A stretch of 64,000 bases of DNA from Promethearchaeota archaeon Loki_b32 (GCA_005223125.1 NJBH01000013.1:1-64000), one strand, 5' to 3'. Counted from the stretch's first letter, positions 7,435-27,305 are shown. Notes: generated from the letters alone by a model not told the origin. Made by a program: numbers and translations.

Positions 7435-8838
7435 TTAAATGATAATTCTCAATTTTTTTCTTTTTTTTAATGATTTGGGGATATTCTCAATATTATTTTT
7501 CACTAAGTTAATAAGTTTTAGATTTTCGAGCTTTTCTATATGTTCAGGTAAACTTTCAATATTATTATCCTTTAGATTCAACCTCTCCAAGCTCTTCAAG
7601 TTCTGAATTGATTTAGGTAAGTAACCTATTTTATTTGAACTTAAATTGAGTGTTTTTAAATTATTCAAGCCTCCCAGAGATTCAGGTAGTGTCTTTATTT
7701 GGTTGTTTGAGGCATCCAGACTTTCTAGATACTTGATTTTACCTATAGAATTTGGTAAATCGGTTATTTTATTATATGATATATTAATTTCTTTGAGGTT
7801 TCTACAGTTTTCCATTGATTCCGGTAACAGGATTAATCTGTTATTGTTTAATATCAATCTTTCTAAGGACTTTAGAATTGTAATATCTTCAGGGATCGAC
7901 GCTATTTGGTTTATACTTAGACTTAACAATTTTAGTTTCTGAAGATTTATAATGTCTTTATTAACACTTTTTATTTTATTTACTCCCAGAAGCAACAATT
8001 CTAGCGAGGTTAATCCATAAATTTTTTTTGGAATCTCTTGAAAAGAATTTCTTGATAAATCTAATTCAGTTAGATTTTGCAATTTTACAATACTGCTGGA
8101 GATATTTTTAAGTCTATTATTACTCATGTAAAGTTTTCTTAGTGTTTGTAGACTATATATTGATTCTGGTAACAGTTCCACATGATTATTTCTAATATCG
8201 AGTCCTACTAATTTTCTACCTTCTATTTCTATTCCATATTTTCTACCTTGAGGTTGAGCCAAACAATTTATTTCAAATTCAATTTCAAAATCTCTATTTA
8301 ATTTTTGTTTTAAGAGGTTAAGTTTCTCTAATGTATTAAAATCAAGAAAGAATTTCACGAACTCCTTTTTAACATAATTTTTTAAATATCCATTCTTAAT
8401 TAAGAATTGTCTGACAGATAGATAATTACTTTCATATCTTTTAATTATTTCTTCAGTAAATACTTTTTTTGCATTTATATCTCCTACTTCAGCCAGCTTC
8501 TTCAATAATGGAAAAGCTAAATTTCTATGGAGTAAGCGGGTATCATAATTATTTTCTACCCAGAATTGAAGATTTGAGCAATGTGCCCAGAATATTGTCT
8601 CCGCAGGGATTTCTAGCTGTTTCATTCCCATTTCATCTTCTGATAATCCATATTCTTCAAGTACCTCATCGACGGAGTCTATATTAAGTAAGTTTTCTAC
8701 CTCATCAATGGTTTTTTTTATCAGGATATGCTTACATTGGTTAAAGAGTTGATTCTTTACATATATATTAGTTATTCTATTTTCAAGCTTTAAAGTTATA
8801 AATTCATTAATTTTGAAATTCAACATTAATTTATACAC
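7435..8838 (-). CDS. Leucine-rich repeat protein with Lokiarchaeia-type N-terminal domain
   Basis: About 10 LxxLxLxxNxLxxLP repeats; N-terminal FKINEFITLKLE...FWAHCSNLQ.W.EN.YDTRLLH.NLAFPLLKKL block. Start may be the downstream ATG/TTG. Confidence 0.9.
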   Translation of the reverse strand: MYKLMLNFKINEFITLKLENRITNIYVKNQLFNQCKHILIKKTIDEVENLLNIDSVDEVLEEYGLSEDEMGMKQLEIPAETIFWAHCSNLQFWVENNYDTRLLHRNLAFPLLKKLAEVGDINAKKVFTEEIIKRYESNYLSVRQFLIKNGYLKNYVKKEFVKFFLDFNTLEKLNLLKQKLNRDFEIEFEINCLAQPQGRKYGIEIEGRKLVGLDIRNNHVELLPESIYSLQTLRKLYMSNNRLKNISSSIVKLQNLTELDLSRNSFQEIPKKIYGLTSLELLLLGVNKIKSVNKDIINLQKLKLLSLSINQIASIPEDITILKSLERLILNNNRLILLPESMENCRNLKEINISYNKITDLPNSIGKIKYLESLDASNNQIKTLPESLGGLNNLKTLNLSSNKIGYLPKSIQNLKSLERLNLKDNNIESLPEHIEKLENLKLINLVKNNIENIPKSLKKRKKLRIII

Positions 8839-10673: not shown

Positions 10674-11426
10674 ATGGGCTTTAATAACAACAATCTTGAA
10701 AGTTTTAAAAACAAAAAGGATCTTATTGATGAATTATATTACTATAAATCTATCATTCTAAAGAAAATAAAGAATGGAGATTATAATTCTGCATTAGAAA
10801 AAGTAAGATCAGCATTAGTGTTAATTGAAGAACATAAAGATTCTTTTAATATTGAAAAAGAACTTCTTGATTTTTATAATATAAATAAAAAAGTAAGAGA
10901 CGATTTGGTAAATCATAGAATGATTTATGAGCGTCGATTCAACAATCTTTTAAAAGAAAAACTTAGTGAGAATAATCTGGAAAACTTTTCTAAATTATTA
11001 GCTATGTTAAAGAATGAAGTAGACCAAAATCTTGATAAATATAATCTACAACATATCAGTGCAAATATCACCAAATATTTTAAATATATTAAAAAAATGT
11101 ATGAAATTCTAAGCTGTTATAGGGTTCTAAATTACCATAATGCTTCCGATAAAATTTTCGACTTTGTAAGAGACATAAAAACTGAAAATTTTCCAAATTT
11201 AAAGATGTTAATCTCCTTAACTTATCAAAATCTAATAAGAAATAGATTATATCTGTGTTCAAAAGAATGTGATAAATTGACACTTTCTGATCTCTCTCAA
11301 AAAATGGCTATCAATCAAGATCAACTAATTGATTTTATTAATCTAATTCAAAAACAACCAAAAAGCCCTATACAAGACTATATACCAAGAACTCAAGAAG
11401 TAGTGTTTAAAAAGTCACGATATTAA
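10674..11426 (+). CDS. Helical protein with C-terminal PCI-like winged helix
   Basis: Helical body; C-terminal LTLSDLSQKMAINQDQLIDFINLI...YIPRTQEVVF fits a PCI/winged-helix pattern. Confidence 0.55.
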   Translation: MGFNNNNLESFKNKKDLIDELYYYKSIILKKIKNGDYNSALEKVRSALVLIEEHKDSFNIEKELLDFYNINKKVRDDLVNHRMIYERRFNNLLKEKLSENNLENFSKLLAMLKNEVDQNLDKYNLQHISANITKYFKYIKKMYEILSCYRVLNYHNASDKIFDFVRDIKTENFPNLKMLISLTYQNLIRNRLYLCSKECDKLTLSDLSQKMAINQDQLIDFINLIQKQPKSPIQDYIPRTQEVVFKKSRY

Positions 11427-11464
11427 TTAAATCTCTCATCCTTATTCTCCTAATTAATGAAATT

Positions 11465-12388
11465 TCATAAACCTCTATAAAAATCCGGTCTTAGTATATC
11501 AGAATGAGTAATTCCATAATTAAGTACTTCAATAATTTTTTCCTTATCTCTATCCAACACTCCTTTAATGGGAAGATAATTACTTGCGTGATTGCTTCGG
11601 AATATGCAATTAGCACTTTTATTTTGAAACTTAACATTTTTAATGAATTCCTTCAATTCTCGTAAAATTTCTACAGAATTCATCTCCTGAAATTCCCCTT
11701 TTGCCATTCTTTTAAAAATTTCTGTTCCGGAAGGTGTCATTAGAGTAAGAAAGGCAATATACCATATTCTATCGTCATCAGGACAAATTTTATTAACTAA
11801 ATCAGCTGATTCTAAAGCGTGCGTTTTTGAGATTTCTGGATTATTTGCACCACCAAGACCATTTATAAAAGTAGCTGATAATGTGATATTCGCTTTCATT
11901 AATTTATTCGATGCTTTAATATAATCGTCCCTGGTTGCATGCTTATGAATATCTTCAAGTAACTTATCATATCCAGATTCAAAACCAATGTAAGCGATTT
12001 TTAATCCTGCGTTTGATAATTCTTTTAATTGAATATCTGATTTTTTTAAAATATCTTTAGCATGAGCATAAACTCCACACCTCTCTAAATTTGGAAAAAT
12101 CTTCATCGAATATTTAGTCAATTCAAGAAGCTTTTCAGTAGGTGTAACCATAGCATTTCCGTCCAAGAAAAATATTCGTTTTACATTTGAACCATAAATC
12201 CGTTTAGCAGTATCTAAATCTTTTTTAACATTATCTACTTCTCTTACTAAGAATTTCTTTCCAATGTTGGAAACACAAAAATCACATTTATAAGTACAAC
12301 CCTCTGTAACTTGAATTAATAGTGAATACCCTTCACTAGGTGGACGAAAAACAGGTTTACAATAATAGATTTCTTCCTTAGTATGCAT
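11465..12388 (-). CDS. Radical SAM protein (COG1032-like)
   Basis: RPPSE..S..Q.T.GC, with CTYKCDFC (Cx3CxxC variant, lacking one spacer residue vs the paralog); YIGFESG; SNHASNY. Confidence 0.85.
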   Translation of the reverse strand: MHTKEEIYYCKPVFRPPSEGYSLLIQVTEGCTYKCDFCVSNIGKKFLVREVDNVKKDLDTAKRIYGSNVKRIFFLDGNAMVTPTEKLLELTKYSMKIFPNLERCGVYAHAKDILKKSDIQLKELSNAGLKIAYIGFESGYDKLLEDIHKHATRDDYIKASNKLMKANITLSATFINGLGGANNPEISKTHALESADLVNKICPDDDRIWYIAFLTLMTPSGTEIFKRMAKGEFQEMNSVEILRELKEFIKNVKFQNKSANCIFRSNHASNYLPIKGVLDRDKEKIIEVLNYGITHSDILRPDFYRGL

Positions 12389-12439
12389 TATGTTATTAAA
12401 AAAATGATAAAAATTGAGAACTATTTATATTTTAATAAT

Positions 12440-13126
12440 TTATTTATTATCTTTAACATCATCTGCATCAGGGGGCCTTTTTGGACAAGAACTTAAATGG
12501 CGACCAAGTCTAACAAACTCTTTTTGACAATAAGGACAAGCTTGCTTCTCTGCTGTACTTTTTTCTCTTGTTCCCGGTTTTCCACTAACTTTTTTCTTTT
12601 TTTTCTTTCCCCTAGTTGGCATGATATCTTCTATACTTGCATCATCGGGAGCAAACTCACAATTTTGAATGTGTGAAGAAAGATTATCGAATATATCTCC
12701 ACAGAACGGGCATTCTGTTATATCAGCTATTTCTGAATCTTCAAGGTCCGCCTTTCCTGCTTTTCTCTTTTCAAATTTCATTGGTGCTACTTCATCTTCT
12801 TCTTCAAACTCATCAATTGATAAATCAATTTTATCTTCCGATGTTATTTCTGCGATTTCAAATTCCTCCAGTTTTATCGCTCTTTCTTTAATTTTTTTTT
12901 CAGCAATCTTTTTGCTTTCTTCAAATATTTCTGAAAATCGCCGAGTGTTTTTGGCTGGATCATATTTGGTACACACTTGGCATACATAAGCTCGAGTGCC
13001 TAAAGTCAATTCTCTAGCAAGACAATAACATAAAGCTTGAAGACTGTTACTAATATTGCCTTTCGGTTCAAGGTGTTTACATACAATTTTTCTTGAATAT
13101 TTAATTTTTTGTTTACGTCTGGGAAT
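12440..13126 (-). CDS. Cys-rich protein with two C2HC zinc fingers; probable ATT start (228 aa)
   Basis: Frame extends 39 codons beyond the TTG at 13009 (IPRRKQKIKYSRKIVCKHLEP...LCYCLARE). GGTGAT SD at 13137-13132, 5 nt before ATT; in-frame TGA at 13135-13133. Fingers CPFC..HIQNC and CPYC..HLSSC. Confidence 0.8.
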   Translation of the reverse strand: MPRRKQKIKYSRKIVCKHLEPKGNISNSLQALCYCLARELTLGTRAYVCQVCTKYDPAKNTRRFSEIFEESKKIAEKKIKERAIKLEEFEIAEITSEDKIDLSIDEFEEEDEVAPMKFEKRKAGKADLEDSEIADITECPFCGDIFDNLSSHIQNCEFAPDDASIEDIMPTRGKKKKKKVSGKPGTREKSTAEKQACPYCQKEFVRLGRHLSSCPKRPPDADDVKDNK

Positions 13127-13229
13127 AAACGATCACCAAAAGAAGTATGTAAGATAGTTATTCTTAAAATTTAATTTTTTTGAATTTAAGTAAAAGAAAT
13201 TTAATAAATTTACAAATTTAAAAATAGAT

Positions 13230-14804
13230 TTAAAAATTAAAATTTAAATTTTTGATATCTTTTGAAATTTTATTCTTTAATTCAATATTTTCCAGATTTG
13301 GTAATAATTCTTCAACAATATCTTTTAATTCTACAATTTTTTGAATAAGCAAATCAGGTTTATTCCAAAAATCTGTTCTTAATGGATGCATCTTTAAGAG
13401 AGCTTTATTAAAATTCTCAATAGCTGCTCTATAAAATAAGCAAGTATTTTCTAGTTTATTAAGCCTTGATTGATAAATTGAACCAATTTTATTAAAACAC
13501 ATACCTGCCCCTGCAAAATCACCTTCTTTTTCAAAATTTATAGCCGCATCTTGAATTTTATTCAGAGCATCTTCTAAAACTTCATTATCTCCTTTTTTTA
13601 ATAGCAAATAACCTCTAATATAGTAAGCTACTCCTAAATAAAAACGATGATTTTGTTTTTTAGCAAGTTTAAATAAATCGTCAGAAAATTCTCCCGCAAA
13701 AATTAAGTGTTCATTTGAAATGCATTTTTGAGTAACAATTCTTAAAAGCTCTAAAACTCTTTCAAAATCTTTATTTTCTCTATATTTTTCAATTCCTTCC
13801 CTAAATTTTTCAATTCCTGTAAAGGAATCTTTATTTTCGAATGCTTGATTTCCTTCATAAATTAATTGTTCTGTTGTTTCTTTCAATTTGATTTCTTTCT
13901 GCTTTTTCTTTCCATCGATCTCGCCATAAAAGAAATCATCAACTCCAAATGTAATATCTTCAGTCATAGGAATTTCGGTTAAAAAATTTTTAGTTTTTAT
14001 ATCGTTTGGTTCAGAACGGGCCTGAACTTTTTTTTCTTGTGAAAATTCTTCTCTGTACGCAGATTGTAAAGGTTTTCCTTCAGTTACCAGGGCAGATAGC
14101 TCAGATAAAACATTTGCAAAGAAGTATTTATTTAATCCGTCCACAACATAATCTATTTTATGATAATTATTGTCAAATCCAGGATCATTTACATTCATAC
14201 TTACGTCAGTTATTCTATAGATTTCAAAACCAGTATCATATTTTGTCATAGGGTATTCAGAGCCGTCTTCAACTTTTATCATTTCTTCTTTCTTCTTTCC
14301 TAAAAGGGTGTGATCAAATACTAAACCACAAAAATCGTTATTGTTTTGCTGAAATCCTAATTGGTTAATTAAATCTATATATGAAAAAAATAAGTTTAAT
14401 CCAGGATGGCTATGAAACCATCCAACTATATAATACCCTTTTCCCTCTTTATCAAGTTTCTCTTGAATTTCTTCGATAAATCCATAATGTCTTTCGTCCA
14501 ACTGAACATCAGTCGCATGTCCAAATGTTAAAGCTTCTGCACGCTCTACATAAACTAATTCTTCATCAGATTTTCCAATTAATAAACCATATATTTCTTT
14601 CCATTCCGCTGGAGGTATTGATTTATTTGCAAATCTGCTTGTGTATAAGATTATAGTTTTATAGGCATCTGCTCTAATAACTACTGGCTTACTGATTTTT
14701 TCTATTTGCTTTTCCTCTTTAGTATCTTCATTTTCTAAATTAGATTCCATATTTTCGTTTCCTGAATTTTCGTTATTATTGGGGTTTTTAAATTTCTCTG
14801 ACAT
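13230..14804 (-). CDS. MPN/JAMM metallo-isopeptidase domain fused to TPR/SNAP-like helical repeats
   Basis: Intact JAMM motif E(IYGLL)...GWFHSHPGLNLFFSYID; C-terminal helical repeats (AAINFEKEGDFAGAGMCFNKIGSIY). Confidence 0.85.
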   Translation of the reverse strand: MSEKFKNPNNNENSGNENMESNLENEDTKEEKQIEKISKPVVIRADAYKTIILYTSRFANKSIPPAEWKEIYGLLIGKSDEELVYVERAEALTFGHATDVQLDERHYGFIEEIQEKLDKEGKGYYIVGWFHSHPGLNLFFSYIDLINQLGFQQNNNDFCGLVFDHTLLGKKKEEMIKVEDGSEYPMTKYDTGFEIYRITDVSMNVNDPGFDNNYHKIDYVVDGLNKYFFANVLSELSALVTEGKPLQSAYREEFSQEKKVQARSEPNDIKTKNFLTEIPMTEDITFGVDDFFYGEIDGKKKQKEIKLKETTEQLIYEGNQAFENKDSFTGIEKFREGIEKYRENKDFERVLELLRIVTQKCISNEHLIFAGEFSDDLFKLAKKQNHRFYLGVAYYIRGYLLLKKGDNEVLEDALNKIQDAAINFEKEGDFAGAGMCFNKIGSIYQSRLNKLENTCLFYRAAIENFNKALLKMHPLRTDFWNKPDLLIQKIVELKDIVEELLPNLENIELKNKISKDIKNLNFNF

Positions 14805-20673: not shown

Positions 20674-22101
20674 TTATTGAATTTTAAACACTTGATTTTT
20701 CCTTCTTTGAAGCCAGTCAATCCTTCCTGATTTACTTAATTTAAATGTCTGATATTTATTATTATTTAAAACAATCATCCAAGACGAATTAGTTAAATAT
20801 TCAATGTAATCTTTCACATGACCTAACTCTTTAAGAATTGATTCCGATTCAAATCTTTTTAAAATAAATTTTATATCTCTTATTTTAACTGATTGTTTAA
20901 TTAAATCATCTATCTCATTTATTTTATCAGGATAGACATCCCATAATGATTTTCCAATAAAATTTTCTTCATTATTTTTTATATCTAGTACTTTTATGTG
21001 ATTAAACATTTCAATTTCTTCAATTTCTGATATCTGGTTAAAGCCAATATATAAATGTTCCAATTTCATTAAATTCTCTAATCCTTTGACTCTTTTTATT
21101 TTATTATTTCTTAGATCTAAAAATTTTAATTCTCGAAGATTTTCTAATCCCTTTACTTCAGCTATATTATTATGACTTAAGTCTAGAAATTCTAATTTTC
21201 GAAGATTTTCTAATCCTTTTATTTCAGATATTTGATTACTGCTTAGATCAAGTCTTTTTAAATTGGTGAGTTTTCTTAATCCTTTAATCTCAGTAATTTG
21301 ATTATTACGGAGATTTAATACTTCTAAGTTTGAGAGGCTTTCTAATTCTTTAATCTGTGAAATGCTATTATCAAATAACATTAATAATTTTAGATTAGAA
21401 AGACCGCTTATTCCTTCTATTATAGATATTTCATTATTATTCAAGTACAAAGACTCTAGCTTATGTAAATCTAATAAACCTTCGACTTTTTTGATCATAT
21501 TACCTTGCAAATGCAAAGATCTCAGGTTATTTAATTTATCTAGACCATTTAATACACTGATTTGATTATAATTGAGAAATAATTTCTTTAAATTGGTTAA
21601 ATTTTCCAAATTTTTAATTTTTCTTATATTGTCGATATTCCTATTATTAAGATTAATGAGTGGATAAAATTCTGAAGGAAAAAAAATATGTCCTTCAAAA
21701 TTAACGTACTTCAAGTTTTTTAAAACAGATTTTAATTTGTTATCTGATGATTTTTCTATAGATTTGATAATATGAAATAAACAAGAATCAGCTTTATCGT
21801 ATTTTATCGCCCATGTAATTGGTTTAATTGCTTTTTCTGAAAAATTAAGAATTAAAATACGTGCTGCCTGTCCTCGAACTTGTTCATTCAGATCAGAGAT
21901 TAATAAATTCTCAAGGAAGTTAAATACTTTTTCATCTTTAGTTTTTATTAATCCCAGAAATTTGATTGCTAATATTCTAGTTTTATCTTCATAATCATGA
22001 ATACCATCAATTAATGAAATTAATAAGGCTGAGGTTTGATTTTTATCTAATTTCTTATTCTGAAATTCTTTATAAATCTTATTTGGGGATAATATTGACA
22101 T
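20674..22101 (-). CDS. HEAT-like plus SDS22/internalin-type LRR protein
   Basis: LENLLISD..VRGQAA HEAT-like motif; repeated LxxLxLxxNxIxxIxGL. Confidence 0.88.
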   Translation of the reverse strand: MSILSPNKIYKEFQNKKLDKNQTSALLISLIDGIHDYEDKTRILAIKFLGLIKTKDEKVFNFLENLLISDLNEQVRGQAARILILNFSEKAIKPITWAIKYDKADSCLFHIIKSIEKSSDNKLKSVLKNLKYVNFEGHIFFPSEFYPLINLNNRNIDNIRKIKNLENLTNLKKLFLNYNQISVLNGLDKLNNLRSLHLQGNMIKKVEGLLDLHKLESLYLNNNEISIIEGISGLSNLKLLMLFDNSISQIKELESLSNLEVLNLRNNQITEIKGLRKLTNLKRLDLSSNQISEIKGLENLRKLEFLDLSHNNIAEVKGLENLRELKFLDLRNNKIKRVKGLENLMKLEHLYIGFNQISEIEEIEMFNHIKVLDIKNNEENFIGKSLWDVYPDKINEIDDLIKQSVKIRDIKFILKRFESESILKELGHVKDYIEYLTNSSWMIVLNNNKYQTFKLSKSGRIDWLQRRKNQVFKIQ

Positions 22102-22224
22102 CAATTAGTTAAATTTATGAGTTTAAATGATGATCCAGTACAAAAATAAACACTATTTTATAAAAATACTGAGATAATTAAAATTTACTCTTTTTTATTA
22201 AAAAAGAAAAAAAAGTTTTAAATC

Positions 22225-23938: not shown

Positions 23939-24535
23939 CTATACTACCACATAGGATATATGTTGTTTCTTCAACATAAGGTTATTCAATTTTTTAAAAA
24001 CTTCTAAAACGTTATAATTCTCTAAAGCAGATGTCCTATGAAAACCAACAAGTTTTCTTTTTTCTAAATATTTAAAAATTAAATCATCGTTAACGATTTC
24101 TGAATCTGATGTTTTATCTATTAAATCGCTTTTGCTCCCTACAAGTAGTATTGGAATGTTTCGATCAACTGCATTCTCAATTACTTTATTATACCAAAAA
24201 TCTAATTGATTGAATGAAGTATAGTTAACGGAATCAAATACTAATAATGCACCATTAGCACCTTCTATAAATTTTGGGATTAAAGGAGCGAATCTTTCTT
24301 GTCCTCCAAAATCAAAAATAGAATTTACGACATAATTTTCTTTTAATGTATTAGGATCGTTTGTTAAATCAATTCTTAGATAAACAGAATGAAAATTGAT
24401 TCCTATTGTTGGAGATGTATCAAAATTAAATGAATTGAAACAATAACGATTGAAAAGAGAAGTTTTACCAACTGAGCTGGATCCGCATATCACTGTTTTA
24501 AAGCTAAACAGTATGTCTTTCTGATTATAACTCAT
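23939..24535 (-). CDS. Rab-like small GTPase
   Basis: GSSSVGKTS, PTIG, DFGGQERF, GSKSD, TSA. Confidence 0.9.
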   Translation of the reverse strand: MSYNQKDILFSFKTVICGSSSVGKTSLFNRYCFNSFNFDTSPTIGINFHSVYLRIDLTNDPNTLKENYVVNSIFDFGGQERFAPLIPKFIEGANGALLVFDSVNYTSFNQLDFWYNKVIENAVDRNIPILLVGSKSDLIDKTSDSEIVNDDLIFKYLEKRKLVGFHRTSALENYNVLEVFKKLNNLMLKKQHISYVVV

Positions 24536-26396: not shown

Positions 26397-27305
26397 ATGG
26401 CTATAAAAATCCCCCCTGATCAAATTGTTATTAGACCTCCAGTAGAAGCTTATTCTGTTTTAATACCTGTGACTGGTGGATGTGCATGGAATAAATGTAG
26501 ATTCTGTGGAACTTATAAAGGTGTATATGGAGTTACTCAGAATTATGCAATACGGTCTTTAGAGGATGTTAAAAAAGATATTGATAAATATGCTGAGAGT
26601 AATTATCATGGTTTTCCGGTATTTTTAGCAGGAGGCAATCCTACTTCTGCACCAACAGATTACTTAGTTGATATTATCGAATATGTTAGAGCTAAATTAA
26701 GAAATGTTCCACGAATAAGTTGTTACGCTAAATCCTTAGATATTCTAAGAAAATCTGATTATGAATTAAAAGCATTAGCAAAAGCAGGATTGGACATTGT
26801 TTATATGGGATTGGAGAGCGGCTCAAATACTATACTAAGAATTATGAAAAAAGGAACTAATGCCGAATCTATGATAAAAGCAGGGAAGAGAATGTTAAAT
26901 GCGGGAATTATGATCTCATTATACATCATCTTGGGATTAGGAAGTTATAAATATTCAGAAGAACATGTAAGGGAGACTGCAAGAGTATTAACCGAAATAA
27001 ATCCAACTATTTTTAGATTTCGAACTTTGAATATTTTACCTGGAACCCCTCTCTGGGATGAATGGAAATCAGGTGACTTTAAATTATTAAGTCCAGTAGA
27101 AAATTTAAAGGAAGAAAGAGAAATCATAGCAAAATTAGGTGAAAATGTTACATCTCAGGTTTTTAACGACCATGTATCTAATTATTGTGCAATAGAATCT
27201 TCAAATATTCAAGAAGATCGTGAAAAGTTTATATTAACATTAGATTTTTATATTAATAATCCTAAAATGCAAAACTTACAAAGAAAGAACTTAACTCGCA
27301 TGTAA
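26397..27305 (+). CDS. Radical SAM protein, paralog of 11465-12388
   Basis: RPPVEA.S, CAWNKCRFC, YMGLESG, DHVSNY. Confidence 0.85.
   Translation: MAIKIPPDQIVIRPPVEAYSVLIPVTGGCAWNKCRFCGTYKGVYGVTQNYAIRSLEDVKKDIDKYAESNYHGFPVFLAGGNPTSAPTDYLVDIIEYVRAKLRNVPRISCYAKSLDILRKSDYELKALAKAGLDIVYMGLESGSNTILRIMKKGTNAESMIKAGKRMLNAGIMISLYIILGLGSYKYSEEHVRETARVLTEINPTIFRFRTLNILPGTPLWDEWKSGDFKLLSPVENLKEEREIIAKLGENVTSQVFNDHVSNYCAIESSNIQEDREKFILTLDFYINNPKMQNLQRKNLTRM

Follow-up and report, generated by a model that had tools for sequence, protein, structure and literature searches.

Four genes lie between positions 10674 and 14804 of a DNA window from Promethearchaeota archaeon Loki_b32 (GCA_005223125.1 NJBH01000013.1:1-64000), the window being the whole stretch of 64,000 nucleotides (nt) that was analysed. 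Three of them are encoded on the minus strand: a JAMM protease fused to TPR helices (JAMM-TPR), a charged zinc-finger protein (the finger protein) and a radical SAM protein. The fourth gene, on the plus strand, encodes a protein of 250 amino acids (aa) with a predicted PCI-type fold. An earlier reading made from the sequence alone (the sequence-only reading) had proposed that this locus encodes a minimal ubiquitin eraser/reader/scaffold module. The genes and features of JAMM-TPR and the finger protein are listed first. Protein models were obtained with AlphaFold2 (AF2), for which the predicted local distance difference test (pLDDT) is given, and structural matches are from Foldseek and VIA.

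13230..14804, minus strand: JAMM-TPR gene, 524 aa, with an Rpn11/CSN5-type MPN+ domain, a disordered linker and a C-terminal TPR domain (Pfam, PDB sequence matches, AF2, Foldseek)
14082..14684, minus strand: MPN domain, residues 41-241 (AF2 strands and helices; VIA against Rpn11 and CsRpn11)
14373..14414, minus strand: JAMM zinc site HSHPGLNLFFSYID, with H131, H133, S141 and D144 (motif search, orthologue alignment)
nt 14595-14597, minus strand: catalytic Glu70, upstream of the JAMM zinc site
13251..13922, minus strand: TPR domain, residues 295-518, ten helices (AF2 pLDDT mostly >85; VIA)
12440..13126, minus strand: zinc-finger gene, ~228 aa, charged, probable start ATT 13126 (homologue alignment, composition)
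12659..12712, minus strand: C2HC finger 1, CPFCGDIFDNLSSHIQNC, CPFC-x9-H-x3-C (homologue alignment, motif search)
12485..12538, minus strand: C2HC finger 2, CPYCQKEFVRLGRHLSSC, CPYC-x9-H-x3-C (homologue alignment, motif search)

JAMM-TPR matches the Pfam family JAB (PF01398) with 44 bits (cut-off 22.5), and its motif E70...H131-S-H133-x7-S141-x2-D144 is intact and invariant across 36 orthologues. The best sequence matches in the PDB are the archaeal enzyme CsRpn11 (E 1.3e-12), CSN5 (3e-9), Rpn11 (6e-9) and BRCC36 (1e-6), with AMSH as a far weaker match (E 0.5). In the AF2 model, which was built from the orthologue alignment, the MPN domain (residues 41-241) is followed by a disordered segment (242-294) and by ten helices (295-518) with pLDDT values mostly above 85. 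A Foldseek search with this model retrieved CSN5 and Rpn11 at E 1e-9. The MPN part superposes on Rpn11 (VIA Z 18.4, root mean square deviation (rmsd) 3.2 Å over 160 residues), CsRpn11 (Z 18.3) and CSN5, the Z range being 17.8-18.4. For the helical part, the best matches are the TPR domains of Pins/LGN (Z 18.9 and 17.7), ahead of kinesin light chain, NASP and Sec17, and the solenoid can also be superposed on that at the N-terminus of a PCI subunit from a plant lid (8amz_Q, residues 80-278, Z 14.7). As the MPN part superposes on Rpn11, CsRpn11 and CSN5 and the helical part fits best on Pins/LGN TPRs, JAMM-TPR is, judged from the models, an MPN+ enzyme fused to an ordinary TPR domain. The intact JAMM protease fused to helical repeats that was described in the sequence-only reading was thus confirmed.

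Two other identities were considered for this protein and rejected. The Pfam family SNAP matches the C-terminal domain at E 0.0095, which would suggest an alpha-SNAP-like protein, but LGN/Pins TPRs outscore Sec17 by fold (Z 18.9 and 16.4, respectively), so that the domain is better described as an ordinary TPR. An anti-phage defence system was also rejected, since PADLOC yielded generic JAB and viperin-core matches only (E >1e-4).

The finger gene, when called from a canonical start codon, the TTG at 13009, spans 12440-13009 (minus strand, 189 aa), and its frame remains open back to position 13132. Homologues with 226-233 aa have N-termini that are nearly identical to the product of the extra 41 codons (PRRKQKIKYSRKIVCKHLEP...CYC...). 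Because these upstream open codons match the conserved homologue N-terminus, the real gene begins about 100 nt after the JAMM-TPR stop codon, in agreement with the earlier claim of a two-finger gene on the same strand at about this distance. The GTG start used in relatives is one base out of frame here (13136-13134), and a candidate ATT start at 13126 sits 5 nt past a GGTGAT motif. Possible explanations for the odd start in this region (13100-13140) are a near-cognate start codon, a frameshift and an assembly error in a homopolymer. ATA is the codon preceding the conserved Pro of the finger protein in two other genera, and a 97%-identical finger protein from other samples has likewise been called at 189 aa.

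The finger protein contains a basic N-terminus, a Cys cluster, an acidic tract, a Lys run and the two C2HC fingers. It is rich in Lys/Arg and Asp/Glu and carries a KRK patch resembling a nuclear localization signal (NLS). The residues of the Cys cluster (C16, C33, C35, C49 and C52) are invariant across the order, as are all Cys and His ligands of the fingers in 16 homologues. The pattern C-P-x-C-x9-H-x3-C was found in three of the 6475 open reading frames of the genome and is doubled only in the finger gene, for which no paralogues were found in the genome. The fingers end with HIQNC and HLSSC (homologue consensus HIQNC and HLNSC), in line with the caveat of the sequence-only reading that the Asp typical of UBZ4 is replaced by Gln or Ser.

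The UBZ-like reader proposed in that reading was not supported. No significant match of the fingers to UBZ models or structures was detected (UBZ_FAAP20 E 0.99; PDB SLX4 E 1.8), their spacer is x9, compared with x11 or more in UBZ4, and they lack the Asp of the H-L-D-x-C motif, a residue important in the UBZ fingers of Rad18 and WRNIP1. UBZ membership was rejected on these grounds, and the finger protein is at most a putative ubiquitin reader. The best PDB match to the fingers is the CCHC finger of the bunyavirus Gn tail (E 0.01). According to precomputed annotation, PF28519 (MTNAP1_ZnF in Atlas) is present on most of the listed homologues of the finger protein (>100 of them), and MTNAP1_ZnF occurs in 87-91% of the two Atlas clusters nearest to it, suggesting that the fingers are of the MTNAP1_ZnF type.

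All 40 other sampled genomes of the window's family contain full-length JAMM-TPR, as do some genomes of two sister families (G165, G207, G201), and it was found in none of the 158 genomes of other Asgard families. In the sister family, two complete genomes, each a single contig, have no full-length JAMM-TPR. The finger gene is present in 39 of the 41 family genomes. Its distant relatives in the sister families keep only the N-terminal Cys module and the second finger; finger 1 is missing from the second-family relatives, and finger 2 persists throughout the order. Wherever a family genome was found to have both the JAMM-TPR and the finger gene, the two are direct neighbours on one strand, separated by about 100 nt, and they also lie close together in the sister families, although inversions have occurred there. 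This tight co-oriented spacing is the best-supported link in the locus.

The other two genes have the following features.

11465..12388, minus strand: radical SAM gene, 307 aa (Pfam Radical_SAM, 60 bits), CTYKCDFC cluster at nt 12275-12298
10674..11426, plus strand: PCI-fold gene, 250 aa (AF2, Foldseek, VIA)
nt 10917-11423, plus strand: PCI-like helical and winged-helix part, residues 82-250, with the winged helix at nt 11268-11408

The radical SAM gene is co-oriented with the finger gene and lies 51 nt downstream of it. The PCI-fold gene is convergent with the radical SAM gene, the two being separated by a 38-nt gap. The AF2 model of the 250-aa protein (mean pLDDT 89) shows a three-helix bundle (residues 14-93), further helices and a winged helix (199-245) with a strand-helix-helix-hairpin arrangement. 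In a Foldseek search of the PDB, the matches listed were all subunits of PCI complexes or PCI-domain partners (TREX-2), including CSN4, PSMD12, eIF3 subunits, PCID2 and Rpn12, and were weak (E 0.015-0.15). Realignment of the Foldseek matches with VIA placed residues 82-250 on residues 213-404 of yeast Rpn6 (5mpb_Q; Z 11.6, rmsd 3.7 Å, 163 residues) and also on other Rpn6 structures and CSN2 (Z about 10), Z values of this size being borderline for helical proteins. An unbiased search of 48,000 chains returned CSN3, PCID2, a plant lid subunit and an isolated CSN4 PCI domain for this part, and the N-terminal bundle gave generic three-helix matches only (e.g. MIT and TPR). The sequence-only reading had noted a convergent gene with a PCI-like C-terminus beyond one radical SAM gene; its position is as described, and the fold is present in the model of the 10674-11426 product, residues 82-250 of which superpose on Rpn6 and CSN2.

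By sequence, the same relationship is faint. Pfam PCI (PF01399) was not reported for the window protein at E values up to 1, and it is a sub-threshold match in nine of the 35 members of the 250-aa family (best E 0.0075), and UniRef gives one homologue the name PCI domain protein. A profile built from the family found no PCI protein and nothing relevant in the PDB, and a profile search of 1.84 billion representatives returned 39 clusters of the 250-aa family, mostly fragments, and no eukaryotic PCI protein. No paralogue of the 250-aa protein was found in the genome. The winged helix is not followed by a C-terminal bundle helix, as the AF2 model ends five residues beyond the last winged-helix strand.

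NCBI records give the name "type II toxin-antitoxin system ParD family antitoxin" to many homologues of the 250-aa protein. Matches to ParD_antitoxin are located at residues 23-58 in 30 of the 35 family members (best E 4.4e-5), and the match of the window protein covers profile positions 12-47 only (20.7 bits, cut-off 21). A ParD antitoxin was rejected, because the similarity is limited to two helices, the model has a helix where the strand of a ribbon-helix-helix (RHH) domain is expected, and the protein comprises 250 aa compared with the ~80-residue domain. No toxin gene lies beside the 250-aa gene. Thus, the ParD antitoxin name is probably wrong, and this widespread database label is corrected here.

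The PCI-fold gene is present in 26 of the 41 family genomes, across four genera. It was not found by profile search in five 98-100% complete genomes of three other genera, nor was it found in the genera g2, g5, g6 and g7, in which JAMM-TPR, the finger gene and the radical SAM gene are all conserved. In g2 and in one g4 genome, the locus is contiguous and has no PCI-fold gene; in three further g4 genomes, the seeming loss of the radical SAM and PCI-fold genes is explained by contig ends. The constraint on the TPR domain is not relaxed in genomes without the PCI-fold gene, as the between-genera TPR/MPN identity ratio is 0.64 with it and 0.63-0.65 without it. One g4 genome lacking the PCI-fold gene has a more diverged TPR domain, a single case. 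Based on the model and this distribution, the 250-aa protein is a PCI-type fold protein and a facultative neighbour of JAMM-TPR. With respect to synteny, the JAMM-TPR/finger adjacency is conserved in the family, but the PCI-fold gene is optional and unrelated flanking genes are syntenic too.

No solved relative was found for the radical SAM protein. NCBIfam matches cover its generic core only, and Atlas returned only uncharacterised radical SAM clusters. Its orthologues are present in 111 of the 201 Asgard genomes, and outside the order they have no finger or JAB neighbours. In the sister (second) family, the gene is next to, and co-oriented with, a polyprenyl synthase gene. It probably belongs to isoprenoid metabolism and is probably not part of ubiquitin reading. 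A second radical SAM gene in the window (26397-27305, plus strand) is 36% identical to the cluster copy, and such a paralogue is found in most family genomes. The window also encodes two leucine-rich repeat proteins and a Ras/Roc-type small GTPase (7435-8838, 20674-22104 and 23939-24535, all on the minus strand), typical Asgard eukaryote-like signalling genes; this GTPase sits beside the radical SAM orthologue in another Asgard family.

A canonical operon of ubiquitin (Ub), E1, E2 and JAB genes (Ub-E1-E2-JAB) is located on another contig. Together with extra ubiquitin-like copies, it is found at C44 (95770-101137, where one ubiquitin-like protein is encoded at 98056-98391) and C70 (2563-2901). 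The JAB protein of the operon is closer than JAMM-TPR to CsRpn11 (4.5e-17) and Rpn11 (9e-13). The three ubiquitin-like proteins have acidic N-terminal extensions and end with -STAG, with no Gly-Gly and no C-terminal propeptide. Seven JAB/MPN proteins are encoded in the genome. The JAMM motif is intact in every one of them, and none is an MPN- protein like those that partner Rpn11, CSN5 and BRCC36. Besides JAMM-TPR and the operon JAB, the seven include five MPN+ paralogues, four of which (316-488 aa) have long charged C-terminal tails that are coiled-coil-like by sequence alone. The tailed paralogues are encoded on C21 (194582-203080) and C1 (11959-13080), two of them in tandem. Together, JAMM-TPR and the tailed paralogues suggest a family of differently targeted isopeptidases in this lineage.

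In the interpretation that we prefer, and to which we assign somewhat less than an even chance, JAMM-TPR is a lineage-specific, TPR-targeted paralogue of the archaeal Rpn11-like isopeptidase, which works with the finger protein as its adaptor or substrate, the PCI-fold protein being optional and the radical SAM protein a bystander. Its MPN+ domain would most likely cleave the organism's -STAG ubiquitin-like modifier (three gene copies) off selected proteins, and the TPR domain, carried on a flexible linker of ~50 residues, would select the partner or substrate. The finger protein, which is charged, largely of low complexity and predicted to have three zinc sites, would most likely be an adaptor or preferred substrate of the protease. 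The domain identities, the intact active site, the folds, the distribution and the gene order are results of the analysis; we infer the ubiquitin-like modifier as the substrate, co-transcription of the genes and any physical contact between the proteins. The locus is considered a lineage-specific add-on and not a miniature proteasome lid, because its single PCI-fold protein is optional, the bundle helix and an MPN- subunit are missing, and the partners do not strictly co-occur.

Several observations weigh against a JAMM-TPR/finger protein partnership acting on the ubiquitin-like modifier. JAMM enzymes can also cleave other ubiquitin-fold carriers or peptides. The 100 nt between the JAMM-TPR and finger genes are AT-rich, with a T5 run just past the JAMM-TPR stop codon and TATA-like stretches, given which separate transcription of the two genes is possible. 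Relatives of the finger protein adjoin the radical SAM gene in genomes without JAMM-TPR (G205, G216, G089), and their occurrence there argues that the finger protein has its own function and is not merely an accessory of the protease. Furthermore, the conserved flanking genes, which encode a CoA-transferase, a metallophosphoesterase, a polyprenyl synthase, a Ras-like GTPase, an FMN reductase and a small membrane zinc-ribbon protein, hold their relative places across genera and partly across families. As the whole region is therefore a slowly rearranging syntenic block that includes unrelated genes, adjacency alone is weak evidence of joint function.

It is possible, with a probability clearly below that of the preferred interpretation, that the four genes are unrelated neighbours in a conserved block. 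JAMM-TPR would then work alone or with unlinked partners, the finger protein would bind nucleic acid or chromatin, and the 250-aa protein would be a winged-helix regulator, possibly with an RHH-like part. The places kept by the CoA-transferase, metallophosphoesterase, polyprenyl synthase, GTPase and FMN reductase genes are consistent with this explanation, as are the Lys/Arg- and Asp/Glu-rich composition and NLS-like patch of the finger protein, its presence in genomes without JAMM-TPR and the ParD_antitoxin matches in most of the 250-aa family; winged helices, moreover, commonly bind DNA. However, the tight same-strand spacing of the JAMM-TPR and finger genes is maintained in ~40 genomes at only ~50% protein identity, which speaks against this explanation. 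The ParD match amounts to two helices, with a helix in the model at the position of the RHH strand, and the structural match of the 250-aa protein spans 160 residues of the PCI domain, extending beyond the winged helix.

The eraser/reader/scaffold complex of the sequence-only reading, in which the PCI-fold protein holds the MPN+ enzyme as in the proteasome lid or the COP9 signalosome (CSN) and the C2HC fingers bind ubiquitin, is considered unlikely. Two of its components, an MPN+ protease type and a PCI-type fold, were retained, but the UBZ reader was not, and the scaffold proved facultative (26 of 41 genomes). The predicted PCI-type fold of residues 82-250, the weak Pfam PCI matches, the UniRef name and the resemblance of the finger ligand pattern to C2HC ubiquitin-binding fingers all favour such a complex, as does the finding that the PCI-fold gene occurs only in JAMM-TPR genomes and within ~3 kb of JAMM-TPR wherever the contig allows. 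Against it are the failure to find the PCI-fold gene in four genera and its absence from one intact g4 locus, the TPR/MPN conservation ratio, which is the same with and without this gene, and its convergent orientation, which implies that it is not co-transcribed. In addition, the PCI-fold protein has no paralogue and no helix past the winged helix, the genome encodes no MPN- partner, and the fingers show no detectable UBZ family, the x9 spacing and no Asp.

A related proposal, for which we see a similarly small likelihood, is that the 250-aa protein represents the detached PCI end of a split Rpn6/CSN2-like subunit and stacks on the end of the TPR solenoid of JAMM-TPR, so that an archaeal MPN+ enzyme would be coupled to a subunit of PCI type. 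No MPN-PCI pair would have preceded it in prokaryotes, and it would have either branched off the lineage that led to the lid and CSN or been reinvented independently.

Least probable of all is a pairing in which the finger protein either supplies the radical SAM enzyme with electrons, in the manner of rubredoxin or Kti11, or is its substrate, and JAMM-TPR joined later: the two are neighbours in all three families of the order with and without JAMM-TPR, are co-oriented in the window's family with a gap of ~50 nt, and AYVCQVCTKYDP is a weak match to a rubredoxin knuckle (E 0.043), but their relative orientation varies by family (divergent, convergent, co-oriented), the radical SAM orthologues in 111 of 201 Asgard genomes have no nearby finger gene, and the co-orientation with polyprenyl synthase in the sister family suggests lipid metabolism.

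Assemblies of PCI and MPN proteins (lid, CSN and eIF3) are a defining feature of eukaryotes. From archaea, PCI complexes are stated not to be known (PMC6043591), and for PCI-like winged helices in Asgard archaea, only ESCRT-linked kinases and Vps28-like proteins are mentioned (PMC10936438). No JAMM-TPR fusion and no Asgard or archaeal MPN-PCI pair was described in the literature searched. The locus suggests that one Lokiarchaeial lineage diversified its Rpn11-like isopeptidases by adding targeting domains (here a TPR domain), and that beside one such isopeptidase a PCI-fold protein evolved as well, in part of this lineage. If JAMM-TPR and the PCI-fold protein bind each other, they would provide a simple expressible system for studying how MPN enzymes were first coupled to scaffolds of PCI type; otherwise, the locus remains a record of how deubiquitinase-like enzymes are directed to specific targets in Asgard archaea.

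Among characterized proteins, JAMM-TPR resembles CsRpn11 from Candidatus Caldiarchaeum subterraneum (PDB 6fjv, 6fju and 6fnn; PMC6043591), an archaeal Rpn11-type MPN+ enzyme with the same JAMM motif. CsRpn11 consists of a single domain, and its gene adjoins a Ub-E1-E2-E3 operon, whereas JAMM-TPR has a 280-residue linker plus TPR region and is encoded away from the ubiquitin operon. The locus shares with Rpn11 and CSN5 of the lid and CSN the MPN+ domain type and a PCI-fold protein encoded nearby. Unlike these complexes, in which several PCI paralogues form a horseshoe and an MPN+ subunit is paired with an MPN- one, it has no MPN- partner and no C-terminal bundle helix, one facultative PCI-fold protein in place of six, a Pfam PCI match below threshold, and a TPR domain fused to the protease itself.

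The fingers share the Cys-x2-Cys-x9-His-x3-Cys spacing of the N-terminal CCHC finger of MTNAP1 (C17orf80), the role of which is not known (PMC10445727). MTNAP1, a vertebrate protein of the mitochondrial nucleoid, has a single finger and a C-terminus resembling ATP synthase f, whereas the archaeal protein has two fingers and an N-terminal Cys cluster. With the UBZ4 and UBZ2 fingers of Rad18, WRNIP1, FAAP20 and SLX4, they have in common the C2HC ligands, the CPxC first knuckle and the final H-x3-C, but differ in the shorter x9 spacer and in the Gln, Asn or Ser at the position of the Asp of HLDxC. In its logic, JAMM-TPR is comparable to the AMSH/STAMBP and BRCC36 complexes, in which a JAMM isopeptidase is combined with a protein-binding module responsible for substrate choice. 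AMSH relies on STAM and on a MIT domain at its N-terminus, and BRCC36 needs an MPN- partner, whereas the targeting part of JAMM-TPR would be its C-terminal TPR domain.

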